From a bacterium (GTDB lineage Bacteria; Auribacterota; Auribacteria; Auribacterales; Auribacteraceae), in contig JACKPL010000004.1 in assembly GCA_024233545.1 (NCBI GenBank), forward strand, positions 153,391 to 217,390: a DNA stretch of 64,000 nucleotides, given 5' to 3'. Made by a program: the position numbers and the translations under genes. Positions 11,364-64,000 of this stretch are shown here, piece after piece. The notes beneath the pieces were generated by a model that was given only the letters and a program-made list of their open reading frames with translations, had not been told where the DNA came from and made no database searches. The stretch's first letter is position 1, and every line of letters begins with the position of its first letter.

Positions 11364-11696
11364 TTAGTCCCACTTACTAAAAATGAAGAAAACCGATCCG
11401 ATCATCAAGGCAAATCCCATAATATAATTCCATTTCAAACCTTCTTTTAAATAAAAAATGGAAAAAAGGCAAAATATAGTAAGCGTAATAACCTCCTGAA
11501 TTGTTTTTAACTGCGCGGCTGAAAAGTATCCATGCCCAATACGGTTAGCGGGCACTTGAAAACAATATTCAAAAAAGGCGATACCCCAACTTGTTATAAT
11601 AACAATCCAAAGAGGAGACTCTTTGTACTTTAAGTGTCCATACCAAGCAAAAGTCATAAAAATATTAGAAATTATTAAAAGAATTACTGTATACAC
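11364..11696 (-). CDS. Small DMT-superfamily membrane protein (DUF486-like), 110 aa, probably 4 transmembrane helices
   Basis: FAWYGHLKY motif and a hydrophobic profile. Its start codon overlaps the stop of the upstream permease (ATGA-type overlap at 11696). Confidence 0.6.
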   Translation of the reverse strand: MYTVILLIISNIFMTFAWYGHLKYKESPLWIVIITSWGIAFFEYCFQVPANRIGHGYFSAAQLKTIQEVITLTIFCLFSIFYLKEGLKWNYIMGFALMIGSVFFIFSKWD

Positions 11697-13444: not shown

Positions 13445-13520
13445 GGTGAGTGAGCGGGTTCGAACCGCCGACCTTCTGGGCCACAACCAGACGCTCTAAC
13501 CAACTGAGCTACACCCACCG
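13445..13520 (-). tRNA. tRNA-His (anticodon GUG) with a genomically encoded G-1 paired to discriminator C
   Basis: The reverse complement folds as a cloverleaf: G + GTGGGTG / TA / GCTC AGTTGGTTA GAGC / G / TCTGG TTGTGGC CCAGA / AGGTC / GGCGG TTCGAAC CCGCT / CACTCAC / C. The anticodon loop is TTGTGGC and the acceptor stem has one G-U pair. CCA is not encoded. Confidence 0.9.
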
Positions 13521-29644: not shown

Positions 29645-30090
29645 TTAGCATCCCATACAGCAATACCGGTTAGCGTTGAGTTGCTCGAAACAAATGCAAT
29701 ATCGCCGATTGATAACAGACCGCCCCATTGATAATTGTGTCCTGATGGGGATTCGGTATCAACCCATGATCCCGTAGCAGTAGCGCTTGCGCCTCGCGCA
29801 TCAGCAACAGCTATCCGGCTACTTCCTACAACCAACACATAGTCGCTATCTAACGCCTGCAGATACCGAGTATAGTAATAATAACTATTGTTCAACCAGT
29901 TATTTGTCGTTCCTGACAGCGTTTCGACATCAGAAATATCTGCATTTAACAATGAGAAATACGGATTGGAATACTCACCTGTCCAATATGCCATATTGCC
30001 TTCCAACCATACACCAAATGCATAATATGAGCTGGTTTTACTGCTGTAGTATTTCGCTCGCCGACATAACGGTAAGACAACGTAGGCACG
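29645..30090 (-). CDS. Giant-gene bridging segment 3, in the third reading frame (track ORF 29518-30006, 162 aa, starting at TTG). It carries protein-like LVIVD-type sequence and connects segment 2 to segment 4 through two frame changes.
   Basis: The frame-C translation is ...YAFGVWLEGNMAYWTGEYSNPYFSLLNADISDVETL...DSDYVLVVGSSRIAVADARGAS...IAFVSSNSTLTGIAVWDAK. It is protein-like precisely where the flanking ORFs' own frames turn into non-domain-like text. Confidence 0.65.
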
Positions 30091-33000: not shown

Positions 33001-35108
33001 GTTTCATCAAATGCTGTTGCTGATACCGTTACAGAATAATTGCTTGATGCAACCGGCAATACAAACGATGCCGCATAGGGATACGTTGTATCATTCTGAT
33101 TAAACAGAATTGTACCGTTGTCATATTCTGCAGTAAAGGTTACGCCGTACACAGCAATATCATCTGTTGCCTGAGCACTGATCGTCACTGAATTACCCAT
33201 GAGCTGACGCGGCATAACCGATAAATTGGACAAGGTTGGCGCTTGATCGGAACGTTTGGATATTGTAACCGTCTCGGATGGCGAAACGTTTCCATTGATG
33301 TCGATTGCGGTTACCGAAGCGCTTGCTTCCGTTAATCCTGACGCCAAATGAGTCATTCCCAGTTTATTTTCCGCAACATCGAGAATGCTCTTATTCACTT
33401 TAATCATTGTGTACTGCCAGTTTTCACCCGGCACGAAGAACACCGTTTTGCCCGACAATGTTTGATTGAGTTTCCGAGCTGTCCCATCAAAATAATCGAA
33501 CATTGCACCACCGGGCGCTCCCTTAATATAATAGTTCTTAGACACATCAATCAAACTCACTGTAGGTGCACTTGTTCCGGGCGTAATACCGACAATACCT
33601 GTTACTGAATCGAAATCTTCATCGGTATTTGTTGTGCCATACGTAATCTGAATAAGCCCTGTTTTAAAGAGTGTTATCTCATAGTGGTTAATTGAACTTG
33701 TCGAACCATAGACACCTAAATAGAGGTGATAATAAAGGATTAACCTATCAGGATACTGCGCATATGCAACATACCGGTTATACGGAGATGAATATGCATA
33801 ATCCCACCATTGCTGGTCAAACACCGCTGATATGCGTGGACGGGTATTCAGGAAAGCATCTATTGATACTGTCTGGTCATTATCACCCTGAGCTTGGCTG
33901 GAATTGCCGCTAAAGGTCAAGAACCCGCTGTTATGAATGTAAACCGTCGAATACGTAGTACCGTAAAATGGGAATGTAAACCCTTGGCTAAAATTAAGAG
34001 TCATTGGGTTTGTATCATAATAATAACCTGTTAAATTTCGGGCAATACCTAAATATCCAACCTCACTGACCACATCGTTGAAGGTTCCGGTCAAGTCAAC
34101 GCCTTGCGCTGAGAGGGTGTAATCAACAACCTTAATATTATCGGTTGCAGTTGCCATTACCAGCATTGACGATCCGTCAACAAACTGTTGGCTCGTCGGT
34201 AAAATTACAGAAACAGAAGGCGGATCGAAGTCTTGTAACCGATTGATAGTCCGAGTTGCAATCGCCACATTGCCATTGATATCAACCGCTCGTACCGTAA
34301 ATACCACTTGCTGAGGATCAACCGGGCCTTGTTCGATTTCATGTGCCAACTGTAATGAAATCGGTTGTGCAGTAGGCACAGCGTTGTATATCTCAACATT
34401 ATTCGCTGAAATAATTATGTGCTCAACAGTAAGGTTATCACTGGCATCAATGTTGAGATTAACAATCGTTCCTTCAAAGAAATTTTCATTTTCGGACGGT
34501 GTATTGATTGCAATAGAAGGAATCTGGTTATCCATCAATGTTGCAAACGATATCGGATCAGCAAGATCACTTTCCATACCGGAAAGATTTATCGCGCGCG
34601 CAGTATACTCATATGGTATTCCTGCCGATCCCGGAGCGGTAAGATGATAAAATTCATAGGGTGCTTTATTCGCTATGCCCGCAGGCTCACCGTTAACAAA
34701 GAATTCTACTGTGATATTGCCCGGCACATCAGGCACTGCTGTAATTATCGCAGTCTCGCCTTCAATAACATCGGTATCATCAATCTGCATTGTTAAGGAC
34801 GGCACTGCGGTTTCACCGAAATCAAGCCTTGCAATCATGAGGTAAGAATTAGTCAGTGGCGATATCAAATAGTTTCCTACTATTTTCATTTCACGCAAAT
34901 CATTGCCGACACCAAGTTCGCTATGTGACAAGGCATTGATCTGTTCAATATCACTCGGATTCGAAACATCATACACAATCAGCCGATTTCCACTGTCATC
35001 ATTTTGGAATAAATACTGCCCGATAACTTCAATGGTGCGCACTTGGAAAGCGCCTGTTGCACAACCGGCTTGAGTCAACGTATTTTTATTTAAATATATA
35101 CGCCTTCC
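29946..35108 (-). CDS. Giant-gene segment 2, 1710 aa from a TTG at 35078, with the frame open to 35108. It has LVIVD beta-propeller repeats, tandem Ig-like domains and no signal peptide. Its last ~45 codons (below about 30087) look out of frame relative to bridging segment 3.
   Basis: ORF translation. LVIVD repeats include AIQGNVLILTQGTNGMATIDISNPRSPVL, IVYIADYGIGLLSYQL, QYAFTAAYRHQLQVLDISNVNYTNP. Confidence 0.8.
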   Translation of the reverse strand, partial: GRRIYLNKNTLTQAGCATGAFQVRTIEVIGQYLFQNDDSGNRLIVYDVSNPSDIEQINALSHSELGVGNDLREMKIVGNYLISPLTNSYLMIARLDFGETAVPSLTMQIDDTDVIEGETAIITAVPDVPGNITVEFFVNGEPAGIANKAPYEFYHLTAPGSAGIPYEYTARAINLSGMESDLADPISFATLMDNQIPSIAINTPSENENFFEGTIVNLNIDASDNLTVEHIIISANNVEIYNAVPTAQPISLQLAHEIEQGPVDPQQVVFTVRAVDINGNVAIATRTINRLQDFDPPSVSVILPTSQQFVDGSSMLVMATATDNIKVVDYTLSAQGVDLTGTFNDVVSEVGYLGIARNLTGYYYDTNPMTLNFSQGFTFPFYGTTYSTVYIHNSGFLTFSGNSSQAQGDNDQTVSIDAFLNTRPRISAVFDQQWWDYAYSSPYNRYVAYAQYPDRLILYYHLYLGVYGSTSSINHYEITLFKTGLIQITYGTTNTDEDFDSVTGIVGITPGTSAPTVSLIDVSKNYYIKGAPGGAMFDYFDGTARKLNQTLSGKTVFFVPGENWQYTMIKVNKSILDVAENKLGMTHLASGLTEASASVTAIDINGNVSPSETVTISKRSDQAPTLSNLSVMPRQLMGNSVTISAQATDDIAVYGVTFTAEYDNGTILFNQNDTTYPYAASFVLPVASSNYSVTVSATAFDETMVSSTATATVNALTNIPPIAGFLAPVNGFEVTEGDVLTIQAFAYDQDVNNNQIPLIGSVTIDIEISQGAGAPITQQFVRNSSPYTVSNYPIPATAEGETMTISVFATDDAGDSSTVVTITGTITGDLPPNVVVTSPPVYTVVASGSEITATADASDDVGQIQSVRFFVFVDGVQDNDSASVVDTTAPYAGTVKIPNGTGSAVVDIRAKAIDSVGQVGISAPITLDIIISTEFLADFPTTDATHMRVVGDYAFVADGAGGLVVLNISDPLNISLVTSDATYTISDLVVIQNTIYAITSTNFVIFRFENEELEFIGETGNIFSSANDVQVRGQFAFVSDETANKLTVLDLNNPATPFEISGSQISVTGPKKIAIQGNVLILTQGTNGMATIDISNPRSPVLKNTYDTSGDARGISINNNIVYIADYGIGLLSYQLKEQTAELIGMGLARKLSGPNRLSQTQYVDVVGSIAFVSDRTNGIAMVNVENPFEMTLVGNASTGADAIDIDVVGDIAYIANDTSGIRLLRLISGQLEAPQIQSVSVVPTQVIEGNSILLTASATDDTGVTIEFLVNGEVVAVDNTVPFQFDYLTAPNSGPSTLLINANAIDLGGNITFTSALEVAVTVLEDNESPVISIIQPTDDKFLLEGTTTTVDISAQDNLGIQVVTVNVNGVQTLFNKPPFTIQNVPLPLGNPPLPLVISGAVQDINGNVTLLAEKSFAVTDDLSAPSVTITSPVNGLEVIAGLSVVSIEANVQDSGLISAVEFFVDGALVFTDTTTPYSYSLTVPGNAGHTTELKVRAEDISDNFTITAPVELITTFAIREITNSGELYRLYNNGSVTGGSFAAEDVYVVGDPVTNQSSLPTTVSPKWMYVANNSSLAVIDLINRSQSTFSTTAAHNIDYQGDFVYVARASSGLGTYYIANPVQPVHVGTHNFGTNGNVYDVKVRGQYAFTAAYRHQLQVLDISNVNYTNPTVPTLSYRYVGERNTTAVKPAHIMHLVYGWKAIWHIGQVSIPIRISHC

Positions 35109-38100
35109 TCATTTGCGGCCGCATAGAGGTAATTGCCGTTAATTTCTATGTCGCGAATATTTTTACCACTTAATGCAGTAGTTACAAACACTGGAACCGG
35201 ACCGTTGGCAATACTATAAATCTTAACGCCATCGCCACTGGTTGCAATATAAAGTTTGTCTTCCGAATACAATACTCGTGTATAAGTGTAGCTACCATTC
35301 CTCGATAGATGCGAAATAATCTGAGGCATCGTGGGTCTAATCAAATCTATTGTATACAAGCCGTCATCATAATCCGCTATATATGCATAACGTCCGACAA
35401 CTGCCATGGATAAGGTATCATCACCAAGAGCATCGATATTGCCTAATGTACTCAATTTTGCATAATCATCGGTGATAAACTTAAATGTCTCTAAGCCTCC
35501 ATCATATGACGCAACATAGATTTTTCCATTCGCAATGCTCGAATCATAATAGGTATTGCTCGTGCTCAGCGTTTTCACTATTGATACAGGAAGGTAGACA
35601 AAACCATTCTGATCATAATACTCAACTTCCATATTCGGAGCAGGAACAAAATTGTTGTGATTCGCGCCGGTAATAATTGTCTCTATGTAATCGATAACAA
35701 TATTCCCCGGATTAGTGAAGTTAATGTTAATAACACCGTCTTCAAACGAAGGCATGAGCGATGCAGGAACGTTTAGCGTAGACAACGTTATACTGCCATC
35801 CGGTAAACTGATCGACTGGAATGACTTCAATTTATCCGAAAGGTTAGTATTCTCAACCTTGATTGTGTTTTGGTCTCGTTCGCTATTTTCCACATCGCCG
35901 GCGAGGACTTTTATCTGAGCGTATAATGGCGTAATGCCAGCAAGTGAAAATCCCTGAACCGCAGTGAAGGCACCTGAAAATAACCAACCATCGGTATATG
36001 TTGGGTCGGTCGCCTCGGCATTCGTAAAGAAATCGTTGGGATAACTTACCGCGCCGTCAATATCAAAGTCAGGCAAAACTCCGCCTTCTGCAAGCGGCGG
36101 AATAAAGCCGAAACCGTCTTTATCTCCTGACAAAACTACTACTTGCGTTAGCGAATCTGTACTTACTAGCAGTTCAAAATTTTTCAATTGATGCCCCGAT
36201 CCATACGGTTGATGGATACGAATCCTGCTTAAATCGATCGGCTGGCTAAAATACCACCATGCCGTTTGATCAACAAAATTCGGACTCCTTGCCCACCCAT
36301 TCCCTGAAGAAGCGATAACGCCATCATATGTCTCAGAAAGCGGATAGCCGCTTTGCTCAAAAGTTGCTCGCGAATATGCTATGCCAACTGGTGTTTCGCT
36401 AAATTCACTCAAGAATTCTATTTCGCCTAATACGAAATTATTATTTGAAGCAAACGTATTGATAACACGCAGTTTAACCATACCCGCATTAGGAATGGTG
36501 TCAAACGCAATTTCGATATATCCGGCGCCCGGATCAACGGGAACGGTAATCAACCCGCCGTTTATTTCCACATCTTTTTGAGCGTAATTTGCCACTCTAA
36601 CTGCACTGCCCGACCCAAAGGTTATATAGTCACGGTTTGCATCAAGCAATTCGAGGGTACTGGTACTCACTTGATTGACCACTTGTATGCCAACCACAAT
36701 TTCAATAATATAGGTTATAGTTTCACGGACATGCGGCACTGGCGGATGCGTATCAATCACGCGCGCTTTTACCCCAATCAACTCGCCTATTCTATCTGAA
36801 GGTATGCGGAACGAACCGCTCGTATCGAACAATTTATACTGGCTTGAACTCGGCGTTTTTACAGAAACAATGTGTTCTTCTAAATTTCCATCACTATTGC
36901 TGTCAAACGGATCATTCACCACCAGAAATTCGACACGAGCCATGCGCACATCATCGGAGGCGCTCACCGAGAAAGTACCGAATGCTCCTGCTGAGAACTT
37001 GTTATCATCAGGAAGATTGGTGAAGTTAATCGATGGAGGCGCATCGGCAAGAAGATTTACCGTAATCGGGTCTGACGGCATAGATTGCGAAGAATTGTCA
37101 ACCGCAACCGCATGCAACAACGCTTTACGCGACAACGTCGGATGAGAACCGCCCGACAATCCGAATCCATTGATTGAATAGTTCACGCCATTATCGGTAA
37201 CCGTTCCACTTATTTGATCAAGAGACGAATTCAATTGTAAACTCATTGCACTAATTTGATGGAGCGCATTATTAAGGATAAAGGTGATCGGCTCTACCAA
37301 TGATAGCGAATTATTTGTATTGTATTTTACTCGAGCATTTATGACAGTATTATTACCGCCAGATGACAACGTCATTCTTAAATCTGCTAAGCTGTTATAC
37401 TGTATAACTTGAATTGATGGTACAGCCAATAACGGCCATGATGTTGTGCCGGTGTACGTACCTGAGAAGTTGGGTGCGTAAATCGGCATAGCAATAGTTG
37501 CAATATAGAGATTCCCGCTGGAGGCGCTTGTATCTACTCCTTTATATTCATTATCAGCATAAAAATCAACTCGCGACATACCACGGTCATCTGTAGCGAC
37601 AGCACGTACTTCAATACTTGAACCTTCAAATGCATTCGAATTCGATGCCGGTTGAGTCATGCTCACTACTGGCGGATCATCATCATCAATATCAATCCGC
37701 ATTGCACTAGATTGTACTGTATGAGCCGCCACATCAACCGAACCGCCATAGTTATCTCGCAATTTCACATACACCGTAAAATATTTAACGGCCGGACTCT
37801 GAATTTCAGGAGCAGTAGCAGTATACCTAAAGTAACTCGCGCTATATCCTGAACTCGTCGATGAATCACGTCCTAGATAGATATCATTATCCCATTCAGA
37901 ACCATTCCATACATTCATATAGAAATCGCAATAATTGAACCAGCGGTCGTCATTCTTCGGTGAACTTACCACAAAATCAATGTTGAAGCTATTAAACTCT
38001 TTGACACTCGCCGGTAAACGGAATTCATCGCCGACGATGACAGGCGGTTCATCTCTTTTTACAAGCAACTGCCGAGTGATAGGTTGAATATGCCACACAT

Positions 38101-41100
38101 TATATCCATCTCTCACACGTGCCTCAATGATATCAACACGCGTTGCAACAGTCGGCAACCATCCCGGAGAATAACTCCAACTGCTTGATGCACTGAACGT
38201 TGAAGAAGCAGTATAGCCCCATGCCGCTTTTTGTGAACCGTTGATCCAGATTTCTGTTCGGTTTATACCGCCGGTAGAATCAGGGTCGGTAGCGCTTATC
38301 GCAATTGTAAAGGAGTTTCCTTCAATAACCGATTGCGCATCGTTTGCCGGTGCAGTAATTGTCACAACAGGAGGCAAATCATCGGTTACTGTTACGGCTA
38401 CAGACGGAGCCCATGGATTTCCTGTTTGACCGATGCTGTCAATAGCATAGGCGCTGACATGAATCGTAGCAGGAGCAATTCCAAATGGTACCGTGTAATT
38501 ATAATCATAGGGCGACGATGTATCAGTTTTGACGACAGTACCGTCAACAGTAAATACTACAGATTGTATTCCGACATCATCGGTAGCGGTAGCCTGCATT
38601 AGTATTTTACCGCCCTCGATCACTAGAGTACCACTACTGAATGCAGTGATAACTGGTTTTGCGTCAAGCACAACTTCGCCTGACACTGACGCCAATGCAA
38701 TATTTCCAGCCGCATCAACAATTTTAACATTAACTACAGCAGGGCCATTAGGCGTCGCATTGGGCACAGTATAGTTTTTATTAAAGGTAAACCTGAATTC
38801 ATTCGTTGGATCCTGTACTAACGTCACTCCGGTAATCTGAACCGTATTGAAACTGACTGTAATCGAATCGAGCAACCGATCACCGGTTACTGATCCGCTA
38901 ATATTCAACACTGCTCCTTGTTTAATGGAAAAACTGCTCGCAGGCGTTGCTAATACGATTGTTGGAGGAGTTGTGTCTTCTTGCCGGGTAATCGTTATCA
39001 GTTGTGACGGCGAAACATTTCCGTTAATGTCAGTTGCAATAACGTCAAACTCAATGATTGACGATGGCGTTCCACCGATAACCGGTACTTCATATACAAG
39101 AGAAATATCGTTAAACGGCGGAGCACCGAATAATGCAAAAGTATCATTATCTATAAGAATTTCAATCTGTTGCACAGCTACATTATCAAGAATATTTGTC
39201 ACATTGATATTGTACTTTAACCCTTCGGTATATGTTAAACCATGAACAGGGTTTACAATAGTAAATGTCGGCGGTTCCATATCCGGAACAGAAAGAATTG
39301 TTATAGGATCAGAGTCAACAGAATTTCCTGCAACATTGCGCGCACGGGCAAAGATTTCAAAGACCGTTCCCGCAGTATCAACCGGAATAGGCAGATGCAT
39401 AATTGCCGGCTCAGACCAATCATCTATATGCGCTAATTGCCCATTTACATAGAATTCAACCATCGCATCGGGATCATTCAAGCCTTGTGCAATAACCTCA
39501 ATATCAGTTCCCTCACTTGCATTTGAGCCGCTCGCCGGAACAGTAATTTGTAGTCCCGAAAGGATTGTGGAATCACCAAAATCTGCATTATATAAATAGA
39601 ATCGGTTTCCTGCTTTGATAAAAATCATATTGCCCAGTAAATAGCTGTCAACAACAGGATTATTTAACTTCATGAGGCCTAGGCTCTCGAGCGATTCTGT
39701 GGCAAGTACCTCAATTTCTCCCGAACTTAGCGTGACAAGCGAATGATATCCTCCAACAACCATATCAATGCCCGAACCTGCAAGGTTTAAGAAATTGTTT
39801 AACGAAAGATCGACATCTCTAAGAAGCAAATAATTATCATCAAACAATACTTGCATTTCATCGCCAATAAGTTTTAAGTGGCTTAAGGACGAAACACCGA
39901 TTTCATTCATATTTTTTGTGTACAATGAAATAGGATTTATCGGGTTTGTGATGTCATACACATTTATTGCATGTGGTTCTCCAACATATAGACTGCCGAA
40001 TTCTACTGCAACAGGCGAAATAGAATCGTTTTCAAATTCCACAAACGGCTGAGTTAACGATTTAATATTAACCACTTTCAAACCTTCGCTTGTCGCAACA
40101 TATACAAAGTTCCCTGCAGGCAGGATTGAGTGAATCGTAGGCAATGCAAGGGATGATATGATATGGCTATTGCCGCTCCAACCTGTTTGAGGGTTGCGCG
40201 CATCGATGATTACTAATTGCTGTGCAAGCACAACCAAGAGATATCCATGCTCATAAACCATATCTTTTATCGTACCGGCAACAGTACAACTCCCCACCAA
40301 ACCAGGAATAAATTTAGGTGTTGTACTCTCAACTTCAAGCACTTGCCCGACAAGATTCGTTACAGGTATAAAAGTTGCACCATCGGTACTTACTTCTATG
40401 CTTATATCTTTGATTCGCGAATTTTGTACTGAAGCATATTGGAATAAATCAATGCGGTTAACAGATGTAAGGTTTGTAACCGTATATGTTCCAACTGATT
40501 GAGGGAAGCCGCCCCATCCATTGTCCGTTGAATTTATTCCTTTATTTCCATCGATTGATTCGCTTATCACAAACCCCTGTTTATTTGAATTTGCGACAGA
40601 GAAAAGGAAATTAATTTTCGTACCGGATGTATTAAATGCTTCTATTTCGCTTAAGATAAAATCACTAAATGTATTATTTATTCTTAAACGAATCATCAAT
40701 ACATTGTCAACAGCATCGAAATTCAAGCGATATAAACTCTGGCCCGGATCATAATCAACAGTCATACGGTTATTTTCAAAATGAACCGCATCATTTGTTA
40801 TATCAACTGCTTTAATTTTGCTGCCGTCCGCGACAAAAACAATATTACCTGCTGGAGCAATTCCTTTGCCGGAAGCAGAATCCAACGCCACAGTATTGAG
40901 TTCTTTTAAACTCAAACCGATAGCAATCGTAACTTCAGCCGATGTTGTTGATGTATACCGGTCATATGCCACACCCTTTAAATTGACCGTTGAACCAAAT
41001 GGCTTTGCAGGAAGCATACCCTGAGCAACCCACTCGCCGCCTATCAACGAGGCTGTTCCGATAACTGCGTTATCAGCAAGCAACTCTACCTTTTCAATAC

Positions 41101-44100
41101 CCACATCATCAGTGACAGACATCTTAACACTTATGATTGATCCGCCTATAAATTCATCTCCGGAAACCGGTTCTAGAATTGATACAACAGGAGGCTGGTC
41201 TTCTACAACTTGAAGTGTTATTTCTTCAATTGTTTGTTGCCCCTTTGTATCGGTAGCAACTGCAGTCAATACCATATCTTGGGAAGTGACAAGATTTTGG
41301 AGCGGAGGAACAGTAATCGAGAATGTGTGGTTTAAAGGATTAAATACCGCACCCGGAACAGGTGGTTCAAAACCACGAATATTGCCGTCGACATAGAGTT
41401 CCAAAAGCGTAACGCCAAGGTCATCCGCCGCGTTTATTGTAACATTTATTTCGTTGTCCTCTACGATAGTACCGCCGTTTTCCGGTTCAACTATATGGAC
41501 AGAAGGAACTTGATCTTGAGTGACAACTATCGCTACAGGGTTGGAAACTTTAGAATTTCCGTCAAAATCATATCCTCGAGCATATAGCAGATGCTCATCA
41601 GGATTAACCCCTCTCCACGCTACGACAGGAACATTTGCCTGATATGTATAACTATTTCCGGTCGGTGATGTTACCCATACACCATTTGAATCATTATCCA
41701 TATAGAACAAGACTTTTTCAACAGAGATATCATCAGTAACAATTGCTTTTACGAGCAACTGTTTCCCTTCAGTAATCTGAGTGCCGACTACCGGTGAGAA
41801 AATATTTACGTTCGGCGGCCTGTTTTCAAAGAGAAGCACCCGCCGGTTTGCGGCACTGGCGGCTGGATTGGATGTTTGCCCTTTAATGTCAACTGCCACA
41901 GCATTAATATGCAATTCATTAAGCACAGTGGACGCAACAGTTTGATATGATGTCTTAAATTTTCCATCACTGCTCGGCGATACCGTTGCGATGAGTATTC
42001 CCTCAACAAAGAACCTCACTGATGCCACACTCACATCGTCAGTAGCTGTTGCAACGATATTAAATGAACGCCCTTTAACAAATTCCTGATCTTCAACCGG
42101 CTCAACTATCTGCGTAATCGCAGGAATTGCGTCATCTACGACAATCACAGTTATTTGGTGAGAAGAAGTTTGATCTCGGCTGTCAGTGACCTGTGCTTTA
42201 ATAGTGACATTTTGAGAACCAGTCACTTCGACAGGAGCAATATAGGTAAACTGATAGGGTGATGAAGCATCTTCAGCAACAAGTAGGTTATTAACGAAGA
42301 ATTTAACGAGTAAAGTGCTGTCTTCATCGGCAACAGTAGCTTGGATAAGTTTGGAGGTATTCTCAACAACCGATACATTATTTGCTGGCGACGTTATTGT
42401 TATTAGCGGTGGTTCATCATCCACTACTTTGAAATGACGCACTGCATCAGTGCTGACATTGCCGGCAAAGTCATATGCCCGAACAGTAAATGTAATAGTC
42501 TGCTCTCCTGTAACAAATGGAGTACGATAGAGGTACTGGTATGGAGAACTGAATACTTCAGCAACGACTGTTCCGTCGAGTATAAAGTCTACTTTTTGAA
42601 CCCCAAGGTTATCTGTCGGCGATGCAATAATCGGTATAGGTTTACCTTCTGTTACTTCTGCGTTTTCAAGCGGTGAAACAACACTGACAACCGGCACTTG
42701 AGTATCATTGAGGATGGTGAGAGTCTTGACGATTTCAGTTACGTTTCCAGCATAGTCAAATGCCTTAACTGTTAAGACATATGGAGTATCTTCGGTTACG
42801 AGCGGTATATAAAGATTGGTTGCATATGGTGAATTAAATATTGTTTCAACCAGATGATTTCCAACAAAGAACTGCACATAAGGCGTATCTTCGGTATCGG
42901 ATGCTTCAATTACAATCGGCAATAATGCTCCTTCAGATATTGAATTTGCTGTCGGTTGAACCAACGTCAACTGCGGCATATCCCCGTTATCCGGACGTAC
43001 TTTAAAGCGTATTGCTCCGCTGGAACTTTCATTCCCTTCAAGACCAATTACTTTTGCAGTAACCGCAAATTCTTTTCCTATGCCGAAATTGATTGGCGAT
43101 ACAGCACGCAATTCAAACGGCTCGTATTTATCTGAAAAGACCGATTCGTTATCGATAAAGAATTCTACCCGCGCCACACCAAACGGATCATCCACAGATG
43201 CCCGTACAGCATATTCTCCTCGGTATCCTATATTAAGAGACGTTTTGGCCGCAACATTGATAACCGGCCCAGCCTCAGACAACGGTAAAGTTGCCACATT
43301 TAACCCTGAATAACCATCAGCAATATACATAACATTCCGCAACGTATCTACACCTGAAGAATAATCGGGAGTATTTACCGTTGTTATAAACTGCGGATTC
43401 AGCGGAGTAGTTATTTTATATACCGTTACGCCATGGATACCGCTTGAAATAATCAAATTGTTGCCATCACGGGCAAAACTTATTGCATCGCTTGTAGGAA
43501 GGGTCGTAACAACAACCGGATTTTGGAGGTCGGAAATATCAATAACCTGTACTCCCACTCCGTTAATTGCGGCATACGCAACATTATGCTCTTCAACAAC
43601 AAGGACATCCCATGTAGATTTTCCAGCAGGCGGCGGAACAGAAGCCAAAATACTGGTATTTTCCGGATCAGTAAAATCAATAATCTGCATTCCGAGGAAT
43701 CCATCCGCAACGAATGCGGTAGTACCAACAATATCCACATTGAGAGAGTCGCCCGGAGTATTGAAAGACGCTTGGAATGCCGGATTACTTCCTGTCGACC
43801 ACTTTGTTATTCCTCCGCCTGTCGTATACAGGAACCCTTCGTCATACTGAACACTATTAACAGCTCCGAAACTACTGATTGTTTTGATTACGTTTGCAGA
43901 AGTAGGATTGGTGATATCAACAACCTTAAGACCGGTAAAACTATTTGCAATATAGGCATAATTCCCTACGATTTCTACTTCAACTAACTGACCGGTAATA
44001 TCAACGTTTTTGATAAGTTGCGGTTCGTTTGCTACCGAAATGTCGTAAACATTCAAGCCCATTGCTGTACCGACAACATACGCTTTATTTTTACTGATAG

Positions 44101-47100
44101 CAACATCTCTCGCTTCGCCGACAGTATTGACTTCTGCAATAATTGTTGCTGAAGTTTCACCTTCCATTGGATATTTGACCAAAGTATCGGCGCCAATAGC
44201 AGTTATAATGCCCAATCGGGTTCCATCAATTCCAAAGCCTATGCCGGAATTCGGTAAACTTCCAATAAAAGCCGGCTTTGCTTCATCAACTATATCTACG
44301 ACAGCCAACGCATTTTCTGTACAGCTCATAAAGATATAATTATCGATCTTACGCAGGCGCATCGTTTCACAGCCGAAACTCGTTGACCCAATGCTTGTTC
44401 CCTCAAGATTGGTAACCTTAAACCCTGATGTACCGTTTGCAATATAGAGCCTGTCTCCAACTGCAAGCACATCTCGCGCAGGGCCAACACTTAAATCGCT
44501 CATTGCGGCAAGAGTCGATCTGTTATACCGCTTGATTTTTCCAACAGCAACATAATAGATGTTATTTTCAGCCGCTACGCCCGTTGCACCGCTTGAGCTC
44601 GCCAGTGAACCGCGAATTTTGAGTTCTTGCGCATTGTTTATATCAACAACCAATGCATTGCCGCCTGTTCGCGCAATAATCAGGTCGTTGGCATATATCT
44701 TCATCTGAGTAATTTTACCCGATACAGGCAACTCATCTAATTTTGTAAATGCAAAATTTGCATTAAGTTGATATGAGATTACAGCGCCTTCACTTCCTAT
44801 ATAGAGGACATCGTTCGTCCACGCAATGCTGTAGGCAGGAATGTTTAATGATGAAAGGAGAACATCATTATCAAGATCATACACTTTAACGCCCGCTGTA
44901 CCTAATGCAAAGTATGCAATATCATTGTTAATAAACATATCTCGTAAGCCGTCAGTAATGCTTAAAATAGCAAGAGGCGCATTTAAACTGAAAGCGACTT
45001 CAACGTTATAACGATAATATTTGCTGGTTATATTTCCAGAATGGTCTATTGTCCGGCTGTAAAGCTCTAATACTGATCCGCGAACATCAAAAGGAAGAGT
45101 ATATTTTATTTCTTTAGACGCATCTGCAAACATCCATCTCTTGACTGTCGCTCCATCAATATCAATATGAATTTCTGTACTTCTGATATTGCGGTTATCA
45201 GAAATATTCAACCCATAACTCAAAGTCGTTCCGGCAAGTATAACCTTACCACTCGGATTTCTTGTGACTGAAACGGTGGGCGCAATAGTATCGCGCACAA
45301 TATTGATAAGTGTTTTTACTTCAGCGTTCTCGTTGCCGCCGTTATCAACCGCTATTGCCCAAATCTCAGCAGGAGTAAACTCATCTACTAAAGGCATAGT
45401 TGTGACTACTTCGTATGGAGGAACCGTATCAAACACAATTTCTTTCTCAAACAATTCGGTTCTAATGCCAATATGAACGCCGACAATCTGCCCATCATCG
45501 TCAGTCGCTTCAACTTGTATAAGCACATTCTCCCCTTCCATTACACCTTTCCCGTTAGTCGGCGTAATAATGTGCACTACGGGAAGAACTGGGCTTGAAT
45601 CAGTTAGAATCGTAATCGTCGCATTAACAGGGTTACTGGTGTTTCCGTTGACATCGGTTGCAATAGCACTCACAACAAAAGAACCGTTGCCTGCCGGAGG
45701 TACAACAACTGTCGTAGAATATGGATAATTACTAACAACTTCATGGCTGACACTATCAACAATAAATTCAACGCTTTGAACAGCCACATCGTCGGTTACA
45801 TCAGCAATAAGCATAAGTTTACTGCCTTCGATTGCATCTGACGGTGCAAACAACTGCACAACCGGTACGGAACTGTCATTGTCAACCGGTACTACAGTAG
45901 GAGTGGTATCTAAAGTATTGCCACCAATGTCCGTTATCGTACCGACAATTGAAACTTGATTTCCACTGACAAGAGATGACGGGACAGGAATCATTGCGGT
46001 TAAACCAAATGAATCGAGCGATGTAAAGAACCGTCCGTCAACTTTAATACCAAGCGTTGCCGCTATGGCGCTATCGGTGGTTACACTGACTTCCGTAATA
46101 CCACTCTCACTGATTGATGAGGCAGGAACGTTTAATGTCAAAATCGGAACTGTTAAGCCAAGATACCGGAGGGTTAATACATTTAAAGAATCAGTGCCGG
46201 CATCGGTGTAATATATCCTGTTGCCTTCAACAGTCACGCCTGATACTGTACCAACACCATGTAATAATCCCAAAACCGTATCGGTTAATAGGTCGATCAC
46301 GAGTAATCCAGCTTGGCTGTCAGCGGCAAAAGCGAGGTTTCCGCTTACTGCCATATCTGAAATCTGCAGGTCGGGATCAGTAATTTTTGCAGTCAATATA
46401 AAATCATTGCCGCTTACATCAAATTTACAAATATCGCCCGATTGAGTACCAACATATAATGTTGTGCCGAACAATGCGGTAAAAGAAGGATTCTCGCCCA
46501 ATGTGTATGTGCTGATAGATGGTTCGCCTTCGGATAAATTCGTGATATCATGCATCGTTAATGTTGCATCATCGCGAGCGGCTATCAGTTTATTGCCAAG
46601 TAATTCCAACCCAATAACACCGGCATCGCCGGGGGTATAATAATGATGAATGAGCGATGAATCAGCACCATCAATATTGAATAGTTTGATTCCTAACGCA
46701 CCATCGGCAACAGCGACACGGAATGTGTTAGCTGGATTTCCTTGTCCGAGGAATATTATATCCTTTGCGGCAAGCAATTCATTCATCGAAATGAGAAGCG
46801 CAGGGTTTGACTGATCAGAAACATCGACAACTTGCAATCCGGCAAATTCATCGGCAAGCACTAATACATCGCCGTAGACAACGCTCATGCGCGTATTGCC
46901 GCCGAAATTCATCGACCATAAGACGCTTGAGTTATCGGGGTCTGCCACATCAAGTGCAAAAGTATTTTGAGAACCACCGCTCACAAATGCGGTATTTCCT
47001 AAAACGGAAACATGGGGCAATTCTCCATTTAAACTATGCAATTGAGAGATATCTACAGTTGCGGGAATCACGGTAAATACTTTCTCGATAACCCGGGAAT

Positions 47101-50100
47101 TACCGGAGATATCCTGCAGATTAGCCCGAATTGTTAAGCTGATATTCGGTACAGCAATTGAAGGAACAGTAATCAGATGTTCTCCTAGTATCGATACTGT
47201 ACTCTGTACAACGCCATCCAAAAGAATGGTTATATTAGATACAACCGCATCGAGGTCATCGGCAGTATCGCCGTTAATAACTTCAACCATCAAATCTGTT
47301 TCTGATAAAATCGAATTCCCTTTGGGGAACGTTACAAGCTCTAGCTCACCCAACGCATCGGTATCTGCGCTGATATTGATAACAATATCCTCAATTTGGC
47401 TTTGATTGCCACCGGAATCACGTGCTCTCACTTTCAATGCAAGCGGAACAATACCAGCGACAACACTTGGTGTAGTAAAATCAAATATGTATGGCTTTTG
47501 AGTTAACGTTTGTAAGATATCTCCATCGTTATCAAGCAATTCTACAGCCGCAACATACCCATCGTCCTGTGCGTCTGCTTCAATTTGAATAAGACGGTTT
47601 TCGAAGAATGTTTCACCAGGCAACGGCGATACAAAGAAAACCTTCGGCGCAATCAGATCGTTCTTAATCTGGAATGTTACGTAAGATGCAACACTGACAT
47701 TGCCGGCAAAGTCATCTGCCCATGCACGTAATCTAATCAATGCTCCGTCGTCTTCCACAGTCTCTACATTATAATTAAACAGGTACGGCGGGCTTAATAA
47801 TGCCGGCTGAGCAATATCATTGATCTCAAGTGATACCTGATGTATATCCTTATTATCAAATGCCTTAACAGAAATAGGCAAAACTATTCCCTCCAACACT
47901 TCCGATCCGTTAAGCGGTGAAATAATTGCTACGTCCGGAGGCACTTGGTCGGGTGTAACATTAAACGCTTTTACATCGGAAACCCGGCGGTTAATAGTGT
48001 CAACAATATCTGCACGAATTTCCATCGGTATTGCCGCATCAACAAACGGCGCAAGAAAATTATACACGATTGTGGTTTCATAGACCGGCTCCTGCACCGG
48101 CGTAGAAGATGTGTTTGGCGTTAAATCGGTTGTTTGAACTTTTACGCCGTTAAGATAATATTCCACAACTTTAATCGGATAGAATGATACAATATCCGCT
48201 TCCACACCTAACCGTACACCTTCGCTTATTTCGGATGGAATATTGGTAAGAGCAATTACCGGAACAGGCGCCGGCAGAACCCTTAACTGAACGGTATAAG
48301 GCGCCGACACATTATTAGCGCTGTCCGTCGCTGAAGCATACAGCGTTAAAATACTTTCACTGTTAACATTAGGGATCTGGAACGATGCGCCGCTACTTGA
48401 AGTGCTCAAACCTGTTGTAGCACCATTCAAAGAATAATTCATCACTCGCGAAGATATACTGCTGAATTGATCGGTTGCTACATGCACCGGCTGTAAAAGA
48501 GCTCCGCTGTAGAAAGATTCATTTGAGATATATTGCTGTCCAGTATTTTTATTTCGAATATAGACAACAGGTGCCGTCAAGTCTCTGGTTTGGAATCGGT
48601 AATTTATCGGAACAAGTGCATTGCCATTTAAATCTTTGATGGTATCGTTCAAATAAATTCTATACCAACTGCTATCATCCAGCGGTTCCGATAATGCGAA
48701 TTGGAATTGATTGCCGGAATAATCCGTTTCGCTCCACGGATGCGGAGTAGAACCGGCAACATCTTTACGGATAACAATACTGCCTTCCTGAAGCAATGTC
48801 AGGTGCTGTACATCTTCAGAAAACTTGATTGTAAACGCGAGATTGACAGATTGGTTTGTTTGTTCCGAACGCGGAGTACTAACATCGGTAAGTACGGTCG
48901 GCCGTTTAATATCGTTGCGCTCAAGAGCATTATTTAAAAGTATTGTTGTAGCAAAGGGACGCTCAATTCTCAAATCAAGAAGGCCGATCGGGCCAGCCGG
49001 TGATGAAAACGTAATTTGCTCTGTACTGATAAAATCTTTTACATCCGTTTTCACATTATCAATATATAATAGAATATCTACAGTAAAACCTGCGCCCTGA
49101 ATTGTAACCGTTTGACCGCCTTCATTTGGTATTACCGTTGGTGAAATTGAAGTTACTGCCAATGGTTTTACATAGAAAAATGCATCATATTCGATCGCCT
49201 CGGCACCATCACTGGCGACAAGCCGTAACGGAACTGAACCGACAATAAAAGGTACCGGAGTAATAATTTCAATAGTATTATGTGTTATTGAAGAAATCGT
49301 AGCAGATTGAGTTCCAAGATACACATCGGTAACTTGAGAAATAACAGTATCGTTTTCATCCTCAACAACAAATCCGGTTCCTGTAATAGTAACGGTATTT
49401 CCGCCAATATTGCTTCCACTGCGCGGTTGAACATCAGCGATAGTCAAAGGCGGTATGCGATTTACAATAGCGCCTGTTTTGAATGTTGATTTAACCAAAC
49501 TGCCCAGTTCATCACCAACAATAGACGTATCTGCTAAATCAATCCTGATTTCATATTCAGTGTTAACCGGCAACACTGGATTGTTAAAATCCAATATAAT
49601 GGTGGATTCAACGATGCTTTTTGTAGTCGGCACCAAAACATTGTTCTTATACACACTGACACTTGTCGTAGTGACAAGCAATGGATCGATATGCGGCGGC
49701 AATTCTACCTGAATTGACGGTGTTGTCGACACAATTTCGCCACCAAACGGTTTTATGCTGTATATACTGTTAAATGGCAGAAATACTGTTTGGAATCCAT
49801 TTCCTGTTGCGACATTGATTACGCCGTTTTCCACATCATATGCCTGTATTGTACTAGCCGCGTCAAAGAAAGTAATTCGCCTAATACTCAACGGATTAGA
49901 AATATCAAAAAGACTTAGGCGTGACCCGCTGTGGAAATACATCAAGCCGGGTTTGATATCCATCAACAAGATATCCGTTGTAGACCAAACAGTATTGATT
50001 TTTACAATAAATGCCGGATTGCTAATATCAAAAATTTGTACGCCCGCAGTTGTCGCAATATAAACAAGGTTACCCTCGCGAATCATATAACGTGCGGTAC

Positions 50101-53100
50101 CCGTAATAGCCGTACTTCCAAGAAGTGCATAATCATATGTTTTGCGGTTACGCACCTCAAGATAATAAGTACTTCCAATTTTATTGATTACATACAATCG
50201 GTTTTGAGAGAAATCAAACTTTTGGAATGCACCGCTCGTTGGAGTAAACTGCCCTGTTGTAACCAAAGTAACTGTTCGGGAAATTTCACCCGGACCAGTT
50301 TGTTGGGAAGTAACCGTCATTTCGATAGTCAATAATCCAAGGTTATTTGTCAATACTTGCAATACATTCTCTTCTTGCGAAAATTGTAATACTGATGTTG
50401 ATGCAGGTAATGGAAGTGTTGCTTTGAGTTTCAGAATATTGATATCGGAAACATCGACTATTTTAAGCGTATTCCCCGCTACTACTCCGACGAAATTATC
50501 ATTTAAAATTTCAATTTGCGAGATTGTCCCGCCAAGGCTAATCGAAGCATTCGGGACAAAATCCGGGTCATTATGAGCAAGTACATTGATAATTTTCAGC
50601 GTTGATCCAGTACCAACGTATGCATTGAACCCTTTAACTTTAACCGTATTATAACTCCCCGACAATTTACCGGCTTGAGGAAGCACGAAAGAATAACTTG
50701 ACGATAACGTGCTTGTTATACCTGTTCCCAATATACCGCCCGGCGTTGTTACAGATACATCTATAGTTCCTAATCTATCAGGAGGAGTAGTTGCTGTTAA
50801 GGATGTAAAACTATGTACTTTAACATCCAATGCTGGAACACCGCCGAATTTTACAATAGAACCGGGATAAAATCCTTGGCTTCCCGTTAAGCTAACATCC
50901 AAATTGCCTGTATAAGTGCCGGTTACAGGGCTGACGCTAGTCAATATCGGCGCTGGCAAATACTGGAATGCCGCAAGCACCGTATGTTTCAAACCACCCG
51001 GATTTATCACGGTAGCCGCAACAGGGCCAGGTATATGAGGAGGTGTTATTGCAGAAATTCGCGTACCACCTTCTAATATCTGCGTATTTACCGCTTCGAC
51101 ACCGCCAAGGTACAATTTCGCTCCATTGACAAAGTTTGTACCGGTTACAATTATCGGATCTCCGCCTTCCTCTAATCCATACACCGGTTCAACTTTAGAT
51201 ATTGTTGGCTGTAACGTTGACGCAACAGATGCGGTTTTAAATACACTGCGGAATTCCGAAGCAAGCCCTTCATTTTGTAAATTCTTAATATCACGCGTTA
51301 CAACAATTCGATATGTCGTATCGGGTTGCAACGGCTGATTGGGTGTTAATATTAAAACCGTCCCGGTACGTACAGTCGTATTCACCAAACTTGCAGGAAC
51401 TTTAACGTTTGTTGCAACATCGAAAATGTAATAATATTCCGTACTGATTGTTTCAGGATTCATCAAAGTAGTAAAATATGCTTTGATTTGTGTAGTTACA
51501 GGAGCAAGTTCTCGATATCCGGGTTCAACTCTCAATACGCCGGCCGTTCGTATAGGCAGAATAACTACAGTACCGTCACCATTTACTTCAGTACCAATAT
51601 ATCCGGTATCAACATCAAGCGATACTGAGATTGCCTTACCGTCGACTGTTGCGAAATTGATGATCTCAGGATGTTCGAGGTCACTGATATCAAATACTTG
51701 AAATTCCCCTTCGCCAGCGGCGAGGAAAGCAGTCGTTCCGACAATGTCAACATCGGTTACTTCGCTCACGTTATTACCGATATTTTGAGGTACAATAAAA
51801 CTGAGCGTAATCGGTAAATCTCGAGCAGAAAAATCTATTACTTGTACTGAATTACCGCATGCGACATACGCAAGGTTGCCATATACACGAATATTATGCG
51901 CTTCTCCAGCTAATGTTATCCTACTCAACACTTCGAATGATGCAGTTGTGAGGTCATAAATAAATATCTCATGTACACCATTTTTATTAACTGCGACTAA
52001 CGCAACGTCACCACCCATACGAACTCGATATGGTGTTCCATCAACGGCAATAGTCTTAATGCGCAACGGATTTTCAAACGTTACATAATCCCATACTTCC
52101 AATTTATTAGTATTTTTTGCAACAATAACCCAATTTTTATCGGGAGCCGCCGATAAAGATTGGTCAGTTGTTGAAATACGATTTTTGATTACCGGATTTG
52201 CCGGTAAGCTGATATCGACAATATAGACACCCGGATTATGCGTAGCAATGAATGCTAAATTGTTGAATATTTGAAAATCTTCCATCAATCCCGTTCCGCC
52301 GAAATTCAAGTCTATTCTGCCGATTTCGCGAGGTTCGAGAGGCTGGCTTACATCCATAAGCGAGAATTTGCCTGGTTCACGGTCAATACCGGCAATTGCC
52401 AAGTTGCCTTCGCCTTCTACTATTTTTACCGGTCCAAGGTTTACTTGCGGCGGATAGGTTAATATGCTGTAAGTAAATCCATCTTCCAACACATCGGAGA
52501 AACCAAGAAACTTAACTGTTACATCAGTCGGCCCGAATTCACCCGATGGAACGATTATGCGAATAGTTGTGATATCGACCACTTTTATATCTTCAGCAGG
52601 AACATTTTCTCCAAAGATCACTTCGGTACCCGGAATAAAACCATCGCCCTTGATCGTGGCAAAAATACCGCCTTCTGCTTTACTCGTATTCGGTGAAATA
52701 GATTTTATTGTTACACGAGGAATAAAGACGAACCCCGCATACAAACTCTTTACCAATCCATCAGGGGTAATAATCTTTAATGCCGCAGGACCGTAATTAC
52801 GGTTACCTAAAGGCGGTGATAAGCAGGTAATTTTCCTCCCATCTGATGATACATTCACATTAGTAGCAACACGCCCGCCAATAATAATTTCTGAATTCGG
52901 CACAAAATTCTCGCCGGTAATTTCCAACGCAATACCGCCATCCGCAAGCAAATAGCGCGGCAGTGAGTCTTTAATCGTTGGAATTCTGTCATCCGCTGAA
53001 GCACCGGTAAAGAAATTGAATTCATAGTTACTAGTAAGATAATAATCTCCACCTCGAATATCCCGTAATCCGTTTGTAACAAGCACCTTATATTCAGAAG

Positions 53101-56100
53101 CCGGGTCAAGGTCTCCGGACTGCGGCAGAATCTCAATATACGATGCCCTGTCGGTGAAAAGAACAATCTGTCCTGCGGAATCGGCTTTGAACGATATGTT
53201 TTGCAGTTCCCAGACATCATTGACTTTCTTGAACAATTTTACCGTATCATTATCCGGATTCGGCGTATCGTCTAATGTAGTAGATATTACCGTAGCAGGA
53301 TTGATCGGACGTGAAAAATGAACGCGAATCGGTTGAACGACATCAACCGTTTCTCCAACATGCGGTTCAGTACCCACAACGTTTACAATCGGAATATTAA
53401 CGATATGTATATGGCTTGCGGCCGCATAGGCATTGGAACCTTTAATTTCCAAACCGCTTCTTGCTCCAGCAACTTCAGCATAAAACTTGATTTTCGGCGG
53501 TAAAATATTACCCGGATTATCTTTGTCTTTCGGGAATATATCAACAACCGTTATACTTTCACGCATAAGAGTAAAAGCTAATCCGCCAAGAACTTTCAAT
53601 CGTTTCCATGTCAAACGGTTCGTTCTTTCCGTCTCACTGCTTCCTGTTTCTGCGCCAAGCGAAAGAGGCTGTGCAAGAAGATTTCCATTAAAATCAAACA
53701 TTTTAAACAATACTTGATTGTTTACGCCACTTCCTGAAACCTCAAGAATATAGATGGTATCGCCGACAACTTTTAAGTCGCGCAAGTTACCCGGAATGGT
53801 AATTTTACCAAGAGTGTTAAGTTCAGGCGTATTGATATCAATAATCTGAACTGCGCTTCCTTGCGGGAAAAGGTCGTTATATACAGACACATATGCACGG
53901 TCACCTTGTATATCAACACCCGTTGCCCGTCCGAAAGTAGGCACCTGATCAACTACAAATGCTTTGGATAATTTATACGCATCAATAACCACAAGGCCTG
54001 CATCATCGCAAGCAACAAAAATCAAGTTATCGATCACATCCAATCCTAATGGCGTTCCCGGAACCTCAATAATCGATTCTTGGATAGGCCGAATCGGAAT
54101 AGAAATATCGAATACTTCAACATGCGGCGGTAAATCTCTACCGGTTAAGCGACGGTTAGACGTATCGGTAAACGGTACGGTAACATACAGTTTTTCGTCA
54201 AAGAACGATTTCGTTAAAGAACCCGTAATCTTCATTTCATTCGCATAACGCGGCGGGAAATTCGGAAGGTCTATGATATCTTCCGGCGGAAGGTCATAGG
54301 AGAAAATTCCAGCCAAAGCCCTATCGCCATTCGGGTTTTCTACCCAAATTTCAACTAACCCCGGAAAATCCGGATGAGGGTTATGGAACGTTATCTGCTG
54401 TAAACTGTTTACATCAAGATCAAGAGCTTCCAGAACACCCTCGAAGAAGACTTCTTCAGATACAAATTCTACTTTTGCGCCCGGAGCAATGGAGAAGTTT
54501 GAAGCACGAATAGTCATCAAAATACCGCCTTCAAGCCGGCCGCCTGTCGGTTCGAGGCTTAGTACCTCATCTGAAATAGGATCAAGATAAATCAACACAC
54601 CCATTAGCGTATTTTCAAGGCTAACTTGATCTGAGCCGACTGTTTCAGTATTGACTACCTTAATAGCCGCCGATCCGGCATTCGGATATGCAGGGACAGT
54701 AACACGCAACTCGTCTTCCGCAATATATGTCACGGATGACTGATTCAACTTGACTCCCGCTATGTATACTTCAGAATCGGGCAGGAACCCCTCACCATAA
54801 ATAGCCATGACATCGCCGCCGGTTGTAAACACTATATTCGACGGGGCTTTAGTAGGTTCATCAACTCGTGTATTGATATCAATTATACGCGGCTGAGTTA
54901 ACCCAACCGTCGCAGTATGGAAGGATGAGGTAAACGGCCGGTACATTTTACCGCCTTCTTGATCGGTAATATCAGAACTTACCCACATATAATAAAGCGT
55001 ATTGGGCAATAGATCATTATCGAGCGTCAAAATTGCGTATTCGGGACCTGTCGGGAACAATACATCCTGCTCAACAGTGACTTCACCGGTAACATAATGT
55101 TTTGTCCCGTCATTATCTTCATGCCAAACTTTAACCTTGTCAGCGGTAATAAATGCAGGATTCACATTTCTATTGAATCGAATAGAAATGCGGTCAATGT
55201 TGTTTGGCACTGTCTGGAATGACGCGGGGTATGTTTCACGTATATTCGTGAACGGCGTTAACAATATATTAACGCCTTTATTTGCCGATGCAAGAACAAC
55301 TGCATCTTCGACAATGGTAACGTCCTGAGCAAACTCTACGTTACCGGCACTGATTACTTTATGATCCAATGGATCGGTAATATCGAACACCTGAACACCG
55401 CCACCCTGCATAGCGGCAAAAAGGAAATTTCCGCGCACTTCAAAGTTACGGCAACTGCCCGGCGTTGTTATATCCCACGTTGTCAATACAATTTGATTGA
55501 CTATTTGCGGATTATACGGATCGCTGATATCGATAATATATATGCCGTCATTGAATTCTCCGACAAACGCATAATCGCCGTACAGTTCCAATCCGGTACC
55601 GTGATCGTCAAACTCGATCGTTGCGATTTCAACCGGTATAGGCGCACTCACATCAAGCACTTTAAACGATCCTTTATAATCCCATGGCGGACAATCCTTG
55701 CTACCCGGAAAATCTTTTTGGAATTCTGCCGCGGCAGTCCCCATGAATGCGTCTAAATGTGCTTCGTCGGCTAAAACCTCTTGTGTCTCAGGATCGACAA
55801 CAATCAGGCGAGTCCGGCCGCTCGCTTGAGCGATAGTTCCAGTGGTTAAGAACAATTTATCTCCACGCAACCGCAGGGTAACTGGGCTTTCGTAATCTAG
55901 CCCAAGCCCACCAAGTTCACCGTACGCGCCGCTTCTATCAATACTATACTCGCGTAACATGACCGGATCGGTTTTTGTACTGAAATCGACCAATGCGAGA
56001 GGGCCTCCGTATCCGAGAGGATGGCATTCAGGGAATCCGCCGCCGACACCATCGGAATACCACGACATAAATACCGGTACTAAAACAGGAGTATGAGGAG

Positions 56101-63997: not shown

Positions 63998-64000
63998 AAT

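Follow-up and report, generated by a model that had tools for sequence, protein, structure and literature searches.

A stretch of 64,000 nucleotides (nt) of contig JACKPL010000004.1 (positions 153,391 to 217,390 of the forward strand; Auribacterota assembly GCA_024233545.1), hereafter the window, carries on its minus strand a giant gene in which an earlier note, made from the letters alone, had pointed to LVIVD repeats at positions 43,200 to 45,000. This flagged 1.8 kb is probably a tandem pair of seven-bladed LVIVD beta-propellers flanked by immunoglobulin (Ig)-like domains of the Big_7 family, and the pair would form one bead block of a single secreted or surface protein, of which the window covers at least 16,782 residues. 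Roughly two dozen propellers would follow one another along this chain, of LVIVD type over its first two thirds and of YVTN/lactonase type in the third open reading frame (ORF; G3), with short rigid Ig-like spacers (Big_5+TIG+TIG or runs of Big_7) holding them apart. The role of such a protein would most likely be that of a long multivalent adhesive or matrix-binding fibre, to which the Ig stalks would give reach and the diverged propeller faces many different binding surfaces. Taken as a whole, this account of one giant propeller and Ig-like fibre with an adhesive or matrix-binding role is judged to be probably correct. The gene is distributed over several ORFs, named from the N-terminal side G1, G2, Gs, G3 and G4 (Table 1).

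The LVIVD repeats are real and non-random, given the Pfam score, the blade counts in comparison with controls, the regular spacing and the matching consensus. The 700-amino acid (aa) translation of nt 43001-45100 matches the LVIVD model PF08309 with 63.2 bits (E 1.4e-17, cut-off 20.2), which agrees with the family named by the earlier note, and the four peptides quoted there were located in the G1 frame of the minus strand, spanning nt 43387-44086. Using a blade hidden Markov model (HMM) iterated from one single unit of the window, 61 blades were found at i-E<0.01 in the giant frame, repaired as described below, whereas the reversed sequence and all 5 shuffled versions gave 0. Adjacent blades start a median of 44 aa apart (range 36-58, n=29 adjacent pairs), near the tandem unit of ~42 aa first proposed, and the blade consensus of the window (..g....v.i.Gn.AyvA....Gl.ViDis.p..p) has the form given at that time. 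With the 42-44-aa unit, the consensus and an HMM score above the cut-off, the repeats resemble the described LVIVD family (PF08309; Adindla et al. 2004, PMC2447325). However, they are unusually degenerate, with 63 bits and 14 blades compared to about 950 bits and 42 blades in the LVIVD protein P0242, and they sit in a far longer protein.

A four-stranded blade and a propeller fold were predicted for LVIVD in 2004 (PMC2447325) and again in 2021 (PMC8078820), the latter among families modelled for want of a known structure, and a sequence search of the PDB returned no solved LVIVD structure. The flagged stretch was modelled using AlphaFold2 (AF2) on nt 43201-45001 with an alignment of 44 LVIVD homologues (model 1), giving an all-beta structure with a predicted local distance difference test (pLDDT) score of 87.9 and a dip in confidence at residues 250-280. 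Counting blades in model 1 gave seven four-stranded blades followed by another seven. The first propeller of the pair shows about 27 strands, corresponding to seven blades, at pLDDT mostly >85, and only three of its seven blades pass the blade HMM. The second shows 28 strands, again seven blades, at pLDDT 90-98, and contains all four quoted peptides as well as the best Pfam LVIVD stretch. Comparing model 1 to the PDB using Foldseek placed tandem WD40 double propellers on top, including Utp21 (4nsx) and UTPs of the small-subunit (SSU) processome (E about 1e-17). A second model (AF2, G2 aa 815-1390; model 2) has one seven-bladed core at pLDDT 90-98, and its best Foldseek matches are beta-TrCP-type and designed propellers, with a root-mean-square deviation of about 3 A over about 305 columns. 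The models thus display the propeller topology, and the HMM matches the significance, that the earlier note had expected, and the LVIVD units are predicted as four-stranded blades closing into seven-bladed beta-propellers.

The same bead-and-spacer pattern continues along the giant frame. Every quarter of G1 has an LVIVD score that exceeds the Pfam cut-off, with 32.6-120.7 bits across the other parts of G1 and G2, and G2 itself gives 120.7 bits for LVIVD and 162.5 bits for Big_7. The G1 quarter holding the propeller pair matches Big_7 (PF17957) with 200 bits over 8 stretches, and the Big_7 domain downstream of the pair is also seen by Pfam at residues 628-665 of the 700-aa query. Over the whole locus the spacers reach up to 264.6 bits for Big_7, 177 bits for TIG (PF01833) and 98.6 bits for Big_5 (PF13205). 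The alternation of propellers and Ig-like domains described earlier is borne out, as HMMs trained on the window place 50 Big_7-like, 14 TIG and 8 Big_5 domains between 24 non-Ig blocks. These blocks are mostly either 300-380 aa long, which makes one propeller, or 526-673 aa, likely two, and the LVIVD blades group into about 20 propeller-sized blocks. Within the first about 5,100 residues, a cassette of one propeller of about 310-340 aa, one Big_5 and two TIG domains is repeated seven to eight times, and beyond this part single or double propellers alternate with stretches of two to eight Big_7 domains. Across the giant locus the G+C content is even, at about 0.40-0.46. No two paralogous modules share more than 38% identity and long DNA repeats are absent, so the array is old and diverged and not an artefact of repeat assembly; a collapse of repeats in the assembly was dropped as an explanation on the same grounds. 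A match to the F5/8 type C (discoidin) domain (~40355-40591, minus strand, G1 aa ~7804-7882) scores exactly at the Pfam cut-off of 28.2 bits; as it falls within a 495-aa non-Ig block, with one isolated LVIVD blade on either side, it may be a lectin-like insert.

The earlier note had the repeats recurring in segments 2, 3 and 4. This stood for segment 2, with its LVIVD score of 120.7 bits, and partly for segment 3, and did not stand for segment 4. In G3, LVIVD propellers were found at aa 1-33 and 485-733 and, weakly, at 3683-3851; scanning G3 whole gave no LVIVD at E<=0.01, and scanning aa 470-750 alone gave 34.9 bits. The centre of G3 consists of five to six modules of ~350 aa between Big_7 pairs (19163-26491, minus strand, aa ~1035-3474). 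Three of these modules give YVTN/lactonase/YncE-type propeller matches, two passing the cut-off of a repeat or domain model (TIGR02276, 35.3 bits compared to 27.85, at nt 25481-26482; PF10282, 46.3 bits compared to 21.7, at nt 20738-21790) and the third sub-threshold only, and the modules at nt 22292-23425 and 19163-20239 gave no significant family match. From these profile matches a second propeller family, of YVTN/lactonase type, is recognized in G3, which the earlier note had missed; its matches are confined to the G3 modules and do not extend to the flagged region. In G4, neither Pfam nor the blade HMM detected LVIVD, and the 1,018-aa interior (13944-16997, aa 132-1149) gave no significant family match. 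This interior displays a GGY low-complexity run at about nt 15201-15323 and repeated DNDGNV..W-like motifs. It also contains an 'NGGFESG' motif, of a kind typical of the start of jelly-roll carbohydrate-binding modules.

A stop-to-stop analysis showed that the giant frame is split by four frameshifts of the same sign (0 to 2 to 1 to 0 to 2), here J1 to J4, at which successive open frames overlap by 18, 231, 126 and 6 nt and each of which is of the type expected from a one-base deletion. Adding one base per break, in the T run 35092-35094, in the A4 run 30036-30039, at about 29640 and at 17404-17408, gave a single ORF of 16,782 codons, its N-terminus still missing, with no in-frame nonsense codon among the repaired codons; the downstream frames are open for 1,721, 4,081 and 1,251 codons. 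Giant genes in the sense of West-Roberts et al. 2023 (see below) are single uninterrupted genes of tens of kilobases; here, the longest ORF without a break extends over at least 28.9 kb up to the edge of the window, which cuts it, and 50.3 kb is reached only after repairing the four frameshifts. J1 to J3 fall inside propellers, with G1 ending and G2, Gs and G3 beginning in the middle of an LVIVD blade. With one T added, J1 reads ...NEEGVYILNKNTLTQ..., the blade HMM spans the join and the repaired peptide scores 36.9 bits for LVIVD, and the repaired peptide across J2 and J3 scores 36.8 bits, both above the Pfam cut-off. G1, G2, Gs and G3 are thus one frame, continuous across three of the four breaks, and what had been described as segments are frameshift fragments. 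At J4 continuity is weaker, though likely; the shift has the same direction as the other breaks and G4 has no signal-peptide-like start, but the two frames share only 6 nt, an ATG comes 12 nt past the stop and no domain model bridges the join. Programmed -1 frameshifting was considered and dropped, no slippery heptamer X_XXY_YYZ being found in the overlap windows at J1 or J4. As the downstream frames stay open for thousands of codons without a nonsense codon, assembly or sequencing errors or very recent events are favoured over old decay as the origin of the four frameshifts. A wider proposal, put forward tentatively and at somewhat less than even chances, is that the breaks are errors or population variants, that the gene encodes one polypeptide of well over 16,800 residues, and that its diverged propellers, about two dozen in two families on Ig-like stalks, would together offer different binding sites for particles, partners or prey.

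Among the other explanations, a recently inactivated pseudogene fares best, although it is rather unlikely. Here, a once-intact giant gene would have acquired four real one-base deletions and would yield no full-length product, as could be suggested by four frame breaks in 50 kb that are all of the one-base-deletion type. The sites at J3 and J4 are not homopolymers of at least 3 and fit long-read homopolymer error more poorly, and the giant ORF and close relatives are absent from the protein collections searched, as annotation as a pseudogene would give. Yet, the intact TrpA of the window is equally absent from these collections, and incomplete genome coverage explains the absence equally well. 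In addition, such decay would have to be very recent, because the 16,782 codons lack in-frame nonsense codons and the downstream frames are long open. The eight flanking genes (9.6 kb) are intact, but with the break rate of the giant gene they should hold only about 0.8 breaks, a sample too short to discriminate.

It is improbable that the propellers are instead catalytic or structural units of the cell envelope, such as lactonase-like hydrolases or an S-layer-type coat, and not adhesive modules. Among the G3 modules, some have matches to propeller families of lactonase, YncE and PQQ-associated type, and the Foldseek listing for model 2 includes putative 6-phosphogluconolactonases. However, these matches are far under the full-family cut-offs (YncE 22.9 bits compared to 400; PQQ_ABC_repeats 44.7 compared to 287), with only generic repeat models passing, and the conserved positions of the LVIVD blade are those of the structural core (G-x-AYVA, GL-V-D-S-P), without a recurrent polar catalytic motif; moreover, Ig-like spacers in such number (about 72) are typical of fibres and not of enzymes. 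Slightly less probable still is that the five ORFs are separate genes for several large proteins, acting alone or assembling after export, since the ORF ends and starts that fall mid-blade would leave separate products with incomplete propellers, and while the ATG of G4 lies 12 nt past the G3 stop with a frame overlap of only 6 nt there, and G3 also starts with ATG, the TTG starts of G2 and Gs are merely where the ORF lister begins and no ORF start resembles a signal peptide.

For the giant fibre itself, export, surface location and binding are argued from several kinds of evidence. All domain families of the giant are typical of surface proteins, and the repaired protein is low in cysteine (0.2%) and acidic (D+E 11.7% compared to K+R 5.5%), with no convincing hydrophobic segment. 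The LVIVD family has been associated with cell-surface proteins and with Ig/PKD-like domains (PMC2447325), LVIVD is treated as a cell-surface repeat that possibly mediates attachment (PMC2447325; bioRxiv 10.1101/2022.05.06.490989), and giant repetitive proteins are generally linked to adhesion (bioRxiv 10.1101/2023.11.21.568195). An extracellular fibre is thus supported by surface-type domains, by composition, by homologues that appear to be secreted and by the literature on LVIVD and on giant proteins, and we infer from this analysis that the giant would be an extracellular or surface protein.

Several observations weigh against the reading of one adhesive fibre. The N-terminus lies outside the window, and within the window no signal peptide, anchor or sorting signal was seen; at the C-terminus, no T9SS (type IX secretion system), PEP-CTERM, LPXTG or RTX model matched. 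No significant Big_7 or other Pfam Ig match was found across the repaired join of G3 and G4, and the Ig flanks of model 2, which the alignment left uncovered, have pLDDT <50 and are not confidently modelled. The assembled gene consists of five broken ORFs, and the cell may therefore not produce it as a single chain, or may not express it. Finally, we know of no LVIVD protein with a demonstrated ligand, and the proposed binding therefore rests on the general behaviour of propellers.

Searching GTDB species representatives with a 1,230-aa piece of G1, as well as JGI metagenomes, revealed no close relatives of the giant. Exact 50-mers of the DNA had no match in the genome and metagenome contigs searched either, and look-ups of the exact products of G4, TrpA and TrpB gave no record. 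A word-indexed protein search returned only proteins of at most 1,024 aa and is no gauge of giant relatives; the 120 matches listed all carry PF08309, at no more than 34% identity, and many have T9SS sorting domains. Unlike these short homologues that are T9SS cargo, the giant showed no sorting domain (Por_Secre_tail/PF18962) when the C-terminal ends of G3 and G4 were compared to Pfam and NCBIfam. An exhaustive search of 1.84 billion representatives returned 26,355 LVIVD relatives at E<=1e-3. The top-scoring representatives are long proteins with multiple propellers, reaching 7,218 aa, with at most about 41% identity over the matched stretches; the blade HMM finds 14-49 blades in each of these long relatives, and several have a start that, read by eye, is signal-peptide-like. 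One of them, P0242 (4,285 aa), has 26 LVIVD stretches and many Ig_3/I-set/fn3 domains by Pfam, making the propeller-plus-Ig chain an existing, uncharacterised architecture. P0242, P0241 (6,013 aa) and P0254 (7,218 aa; public metagenomes) resemble the giant in carrying many LVIVD propellers per chain, and P0242 also in interleaving LVIVD with Ig domains by the same bead-and-spacer logic. However, they are not close relatives (30-35% identity), they have less than half the length of the giant, their spacers are of other Ig families or missing, and those checked showed neither a TIG/Big_5 cassette nor propellers of YVTN type.

Other very long proteins offer a comparison at the level of design. 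The giants described by West-Roberts et al. 2023 (bioRxiv 10.1101/2023.11.21.568195), such as an RCC1-propeller protein of Oscillospiraceae, likewise span tens of kilobases, consist mostly of propeller repeats, and are predicted to be extracellular with a proposed adhesion role. In contrast to the RCC1-propeller giants, the protein here uses LVIVD and YVTN propellers with regular Ig-like spacers and not one repeating domain, and its lineage is PVC-group, Auribacterota-like; the enzymatic and signalling domains of the Omnitrophota giants in the same study were not detected here.

Giant RTX adhesins of the LapA, SiiE and MpIBP type are secreted by type I systems, and are very long, acidic and low in cysteine, with runs of Ig-like domains that extend ligand-binding modules. 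The giant is also very long, acidic and low in cysteine, and has long runs of bacterial Ig-like domains. Unlike these adhesins, it lacks RTX nonapeptide repeats (no PF00353 match in any part, and 2 chance GGxGxD matches in 16,782 aa), and no type I secretion genes are adjacent in the 13 kb downstream; neither RTX repeats near the C-terminus nor neighbouring ABC, MFP and TolC genes are thus present on the visible downstream side. Furthermore, its putative binding modules are spread along the chain, whereas those of RTX adhesins are clustered at the tip.

Table 1. Positions of the giant locus, its frame breaks (J1 to J4), the flagged domains and two features on the downstream side, in window coordinates.
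Feature	Position	Strand	Basis or remark
ORF G1, at least 9,636 codons, reaching the window edge without a stop, N-terminus beyond it	35090..64000	-	ORF listing
Big_7 Ig-like domain directly before the propeller pair (upstream), third and last in its run	45068..45283	-	G1 aa 6240-6311; own Big_7 HMM
Predicted first propeller, degenerate, seven-bladed LVIVD	44156..44959	-	G1 aa ~6348-6615; AF2 residues 15-282
Predicted second propeller, canonical, seven-bladed LVIVD	43286..44149	-	G1 aa ~6618-6905; AF2 residues 285-572
Four quoted peptides	43903-43978, 44017-44086, 43513-43582, 43387-43435	-	frame of ORF 35090..64000
Big_7 Ig-like domain directly downstream of the propeller pair, first of a run of eight	43076..43270	-	G1 aa 6911-6975; own HMM
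J1 (G1 to G2), in GTATATATTTAA, inside an LVIVD blade	35090..35108	-	18-nt frame overlap
ORF G2, 1,710 aa: Big_7 runs and LVIVD propellers; clean seven-blade unit at aa 929-1227	29946..35078	-	Pfam, AF2 model 2
J2 (G2 to Gs), most likely at the A4 run	29946..30177	-	frame overlap
ORF Gs, 162 aa	29518..30006	-	ORF listing
J3 (Gs to G3), likely near 29640; G3 ATG falls mid-blade	29518..29644	-	frame overlap
ORF G3, 4,060 aa	17402..29584	-	Pfam, blade HMM
J4 (G3 to G4), 6-nt overlap of frames, ATG 12 nt after the stop	17402..17408	-	frame analysis
ORF G4, 1,244 aa, C-terminal part; Big_7-like domains at both ends	13656..17390	-	Pfam, HMMs
tRNA gene, downstream boundary of the giant locus	13445..13518	-	Rfam RF00005, 65.6 bits
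980-aa ORF, otherwise unannotated	718-3660	-	DUF2963 39 bits; sub-threshold T9SS sorting-domain match mid-protein

The downstream context of the giant gene is ordinary chromosomal. The tRNA gene, about 140 nt past the final stop, is followed by genes for a SulP/STAS permease, trpC, trpF, trpB, trpA, a nucleotidyl (mannose-1-P guanylyl-type) transferase, an M16 peptidase and rpe. A hydrophobic ORF of 110 aa (11364-11696, minus strand) ends where the SulP gene starts, and about 370 nt before trpC appear to be non-coding. On the plus strand, a TTG-initiated ORF of 154 aa (43523-43987) lies antisense to the flagged propeller; comparable antisense ORFs are present at 57183-57656 and 60606-61067, and these are presumably artefacts of the long open frame on the opposite strand. 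The TrpB of the window is 100% identical to one NCBI protein; the match after it is 79% identical, and the nearest matches with a name, at 70-72%, are from Candidatus Auribacterota. The phylum Auribacterota is part of the PVC group, and a paper on metagenome-assembled genomes of Auribacterota makes no mention of giant or adhesin genes (PMC9324843).

The protein is unusually large, and its parts and layout are of already known kinds. Its domain families are familiar, as are the bead-and-spacer layout and the adhesive role presumed for it, and the finding extends a catalogue and opens no new question. For annotation, the locus carries the lesson that, unless the shared sign of the frameshifts is noticed, it would be listed as a pseudogene or as five 'hypothetical proteins' without relation to one another. 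If the polypeptide is intact, it would rank with the largest known proteins of bacteria and, being more than twice as long as any of the relatives found, would be the longest LVIVD protein; its gene, from a candidate phylum that has hardly been studied, would be one of the longest recorded in bacteria. Chains of LVIVD and YVTN propellers would then join the few architectures known at such size.

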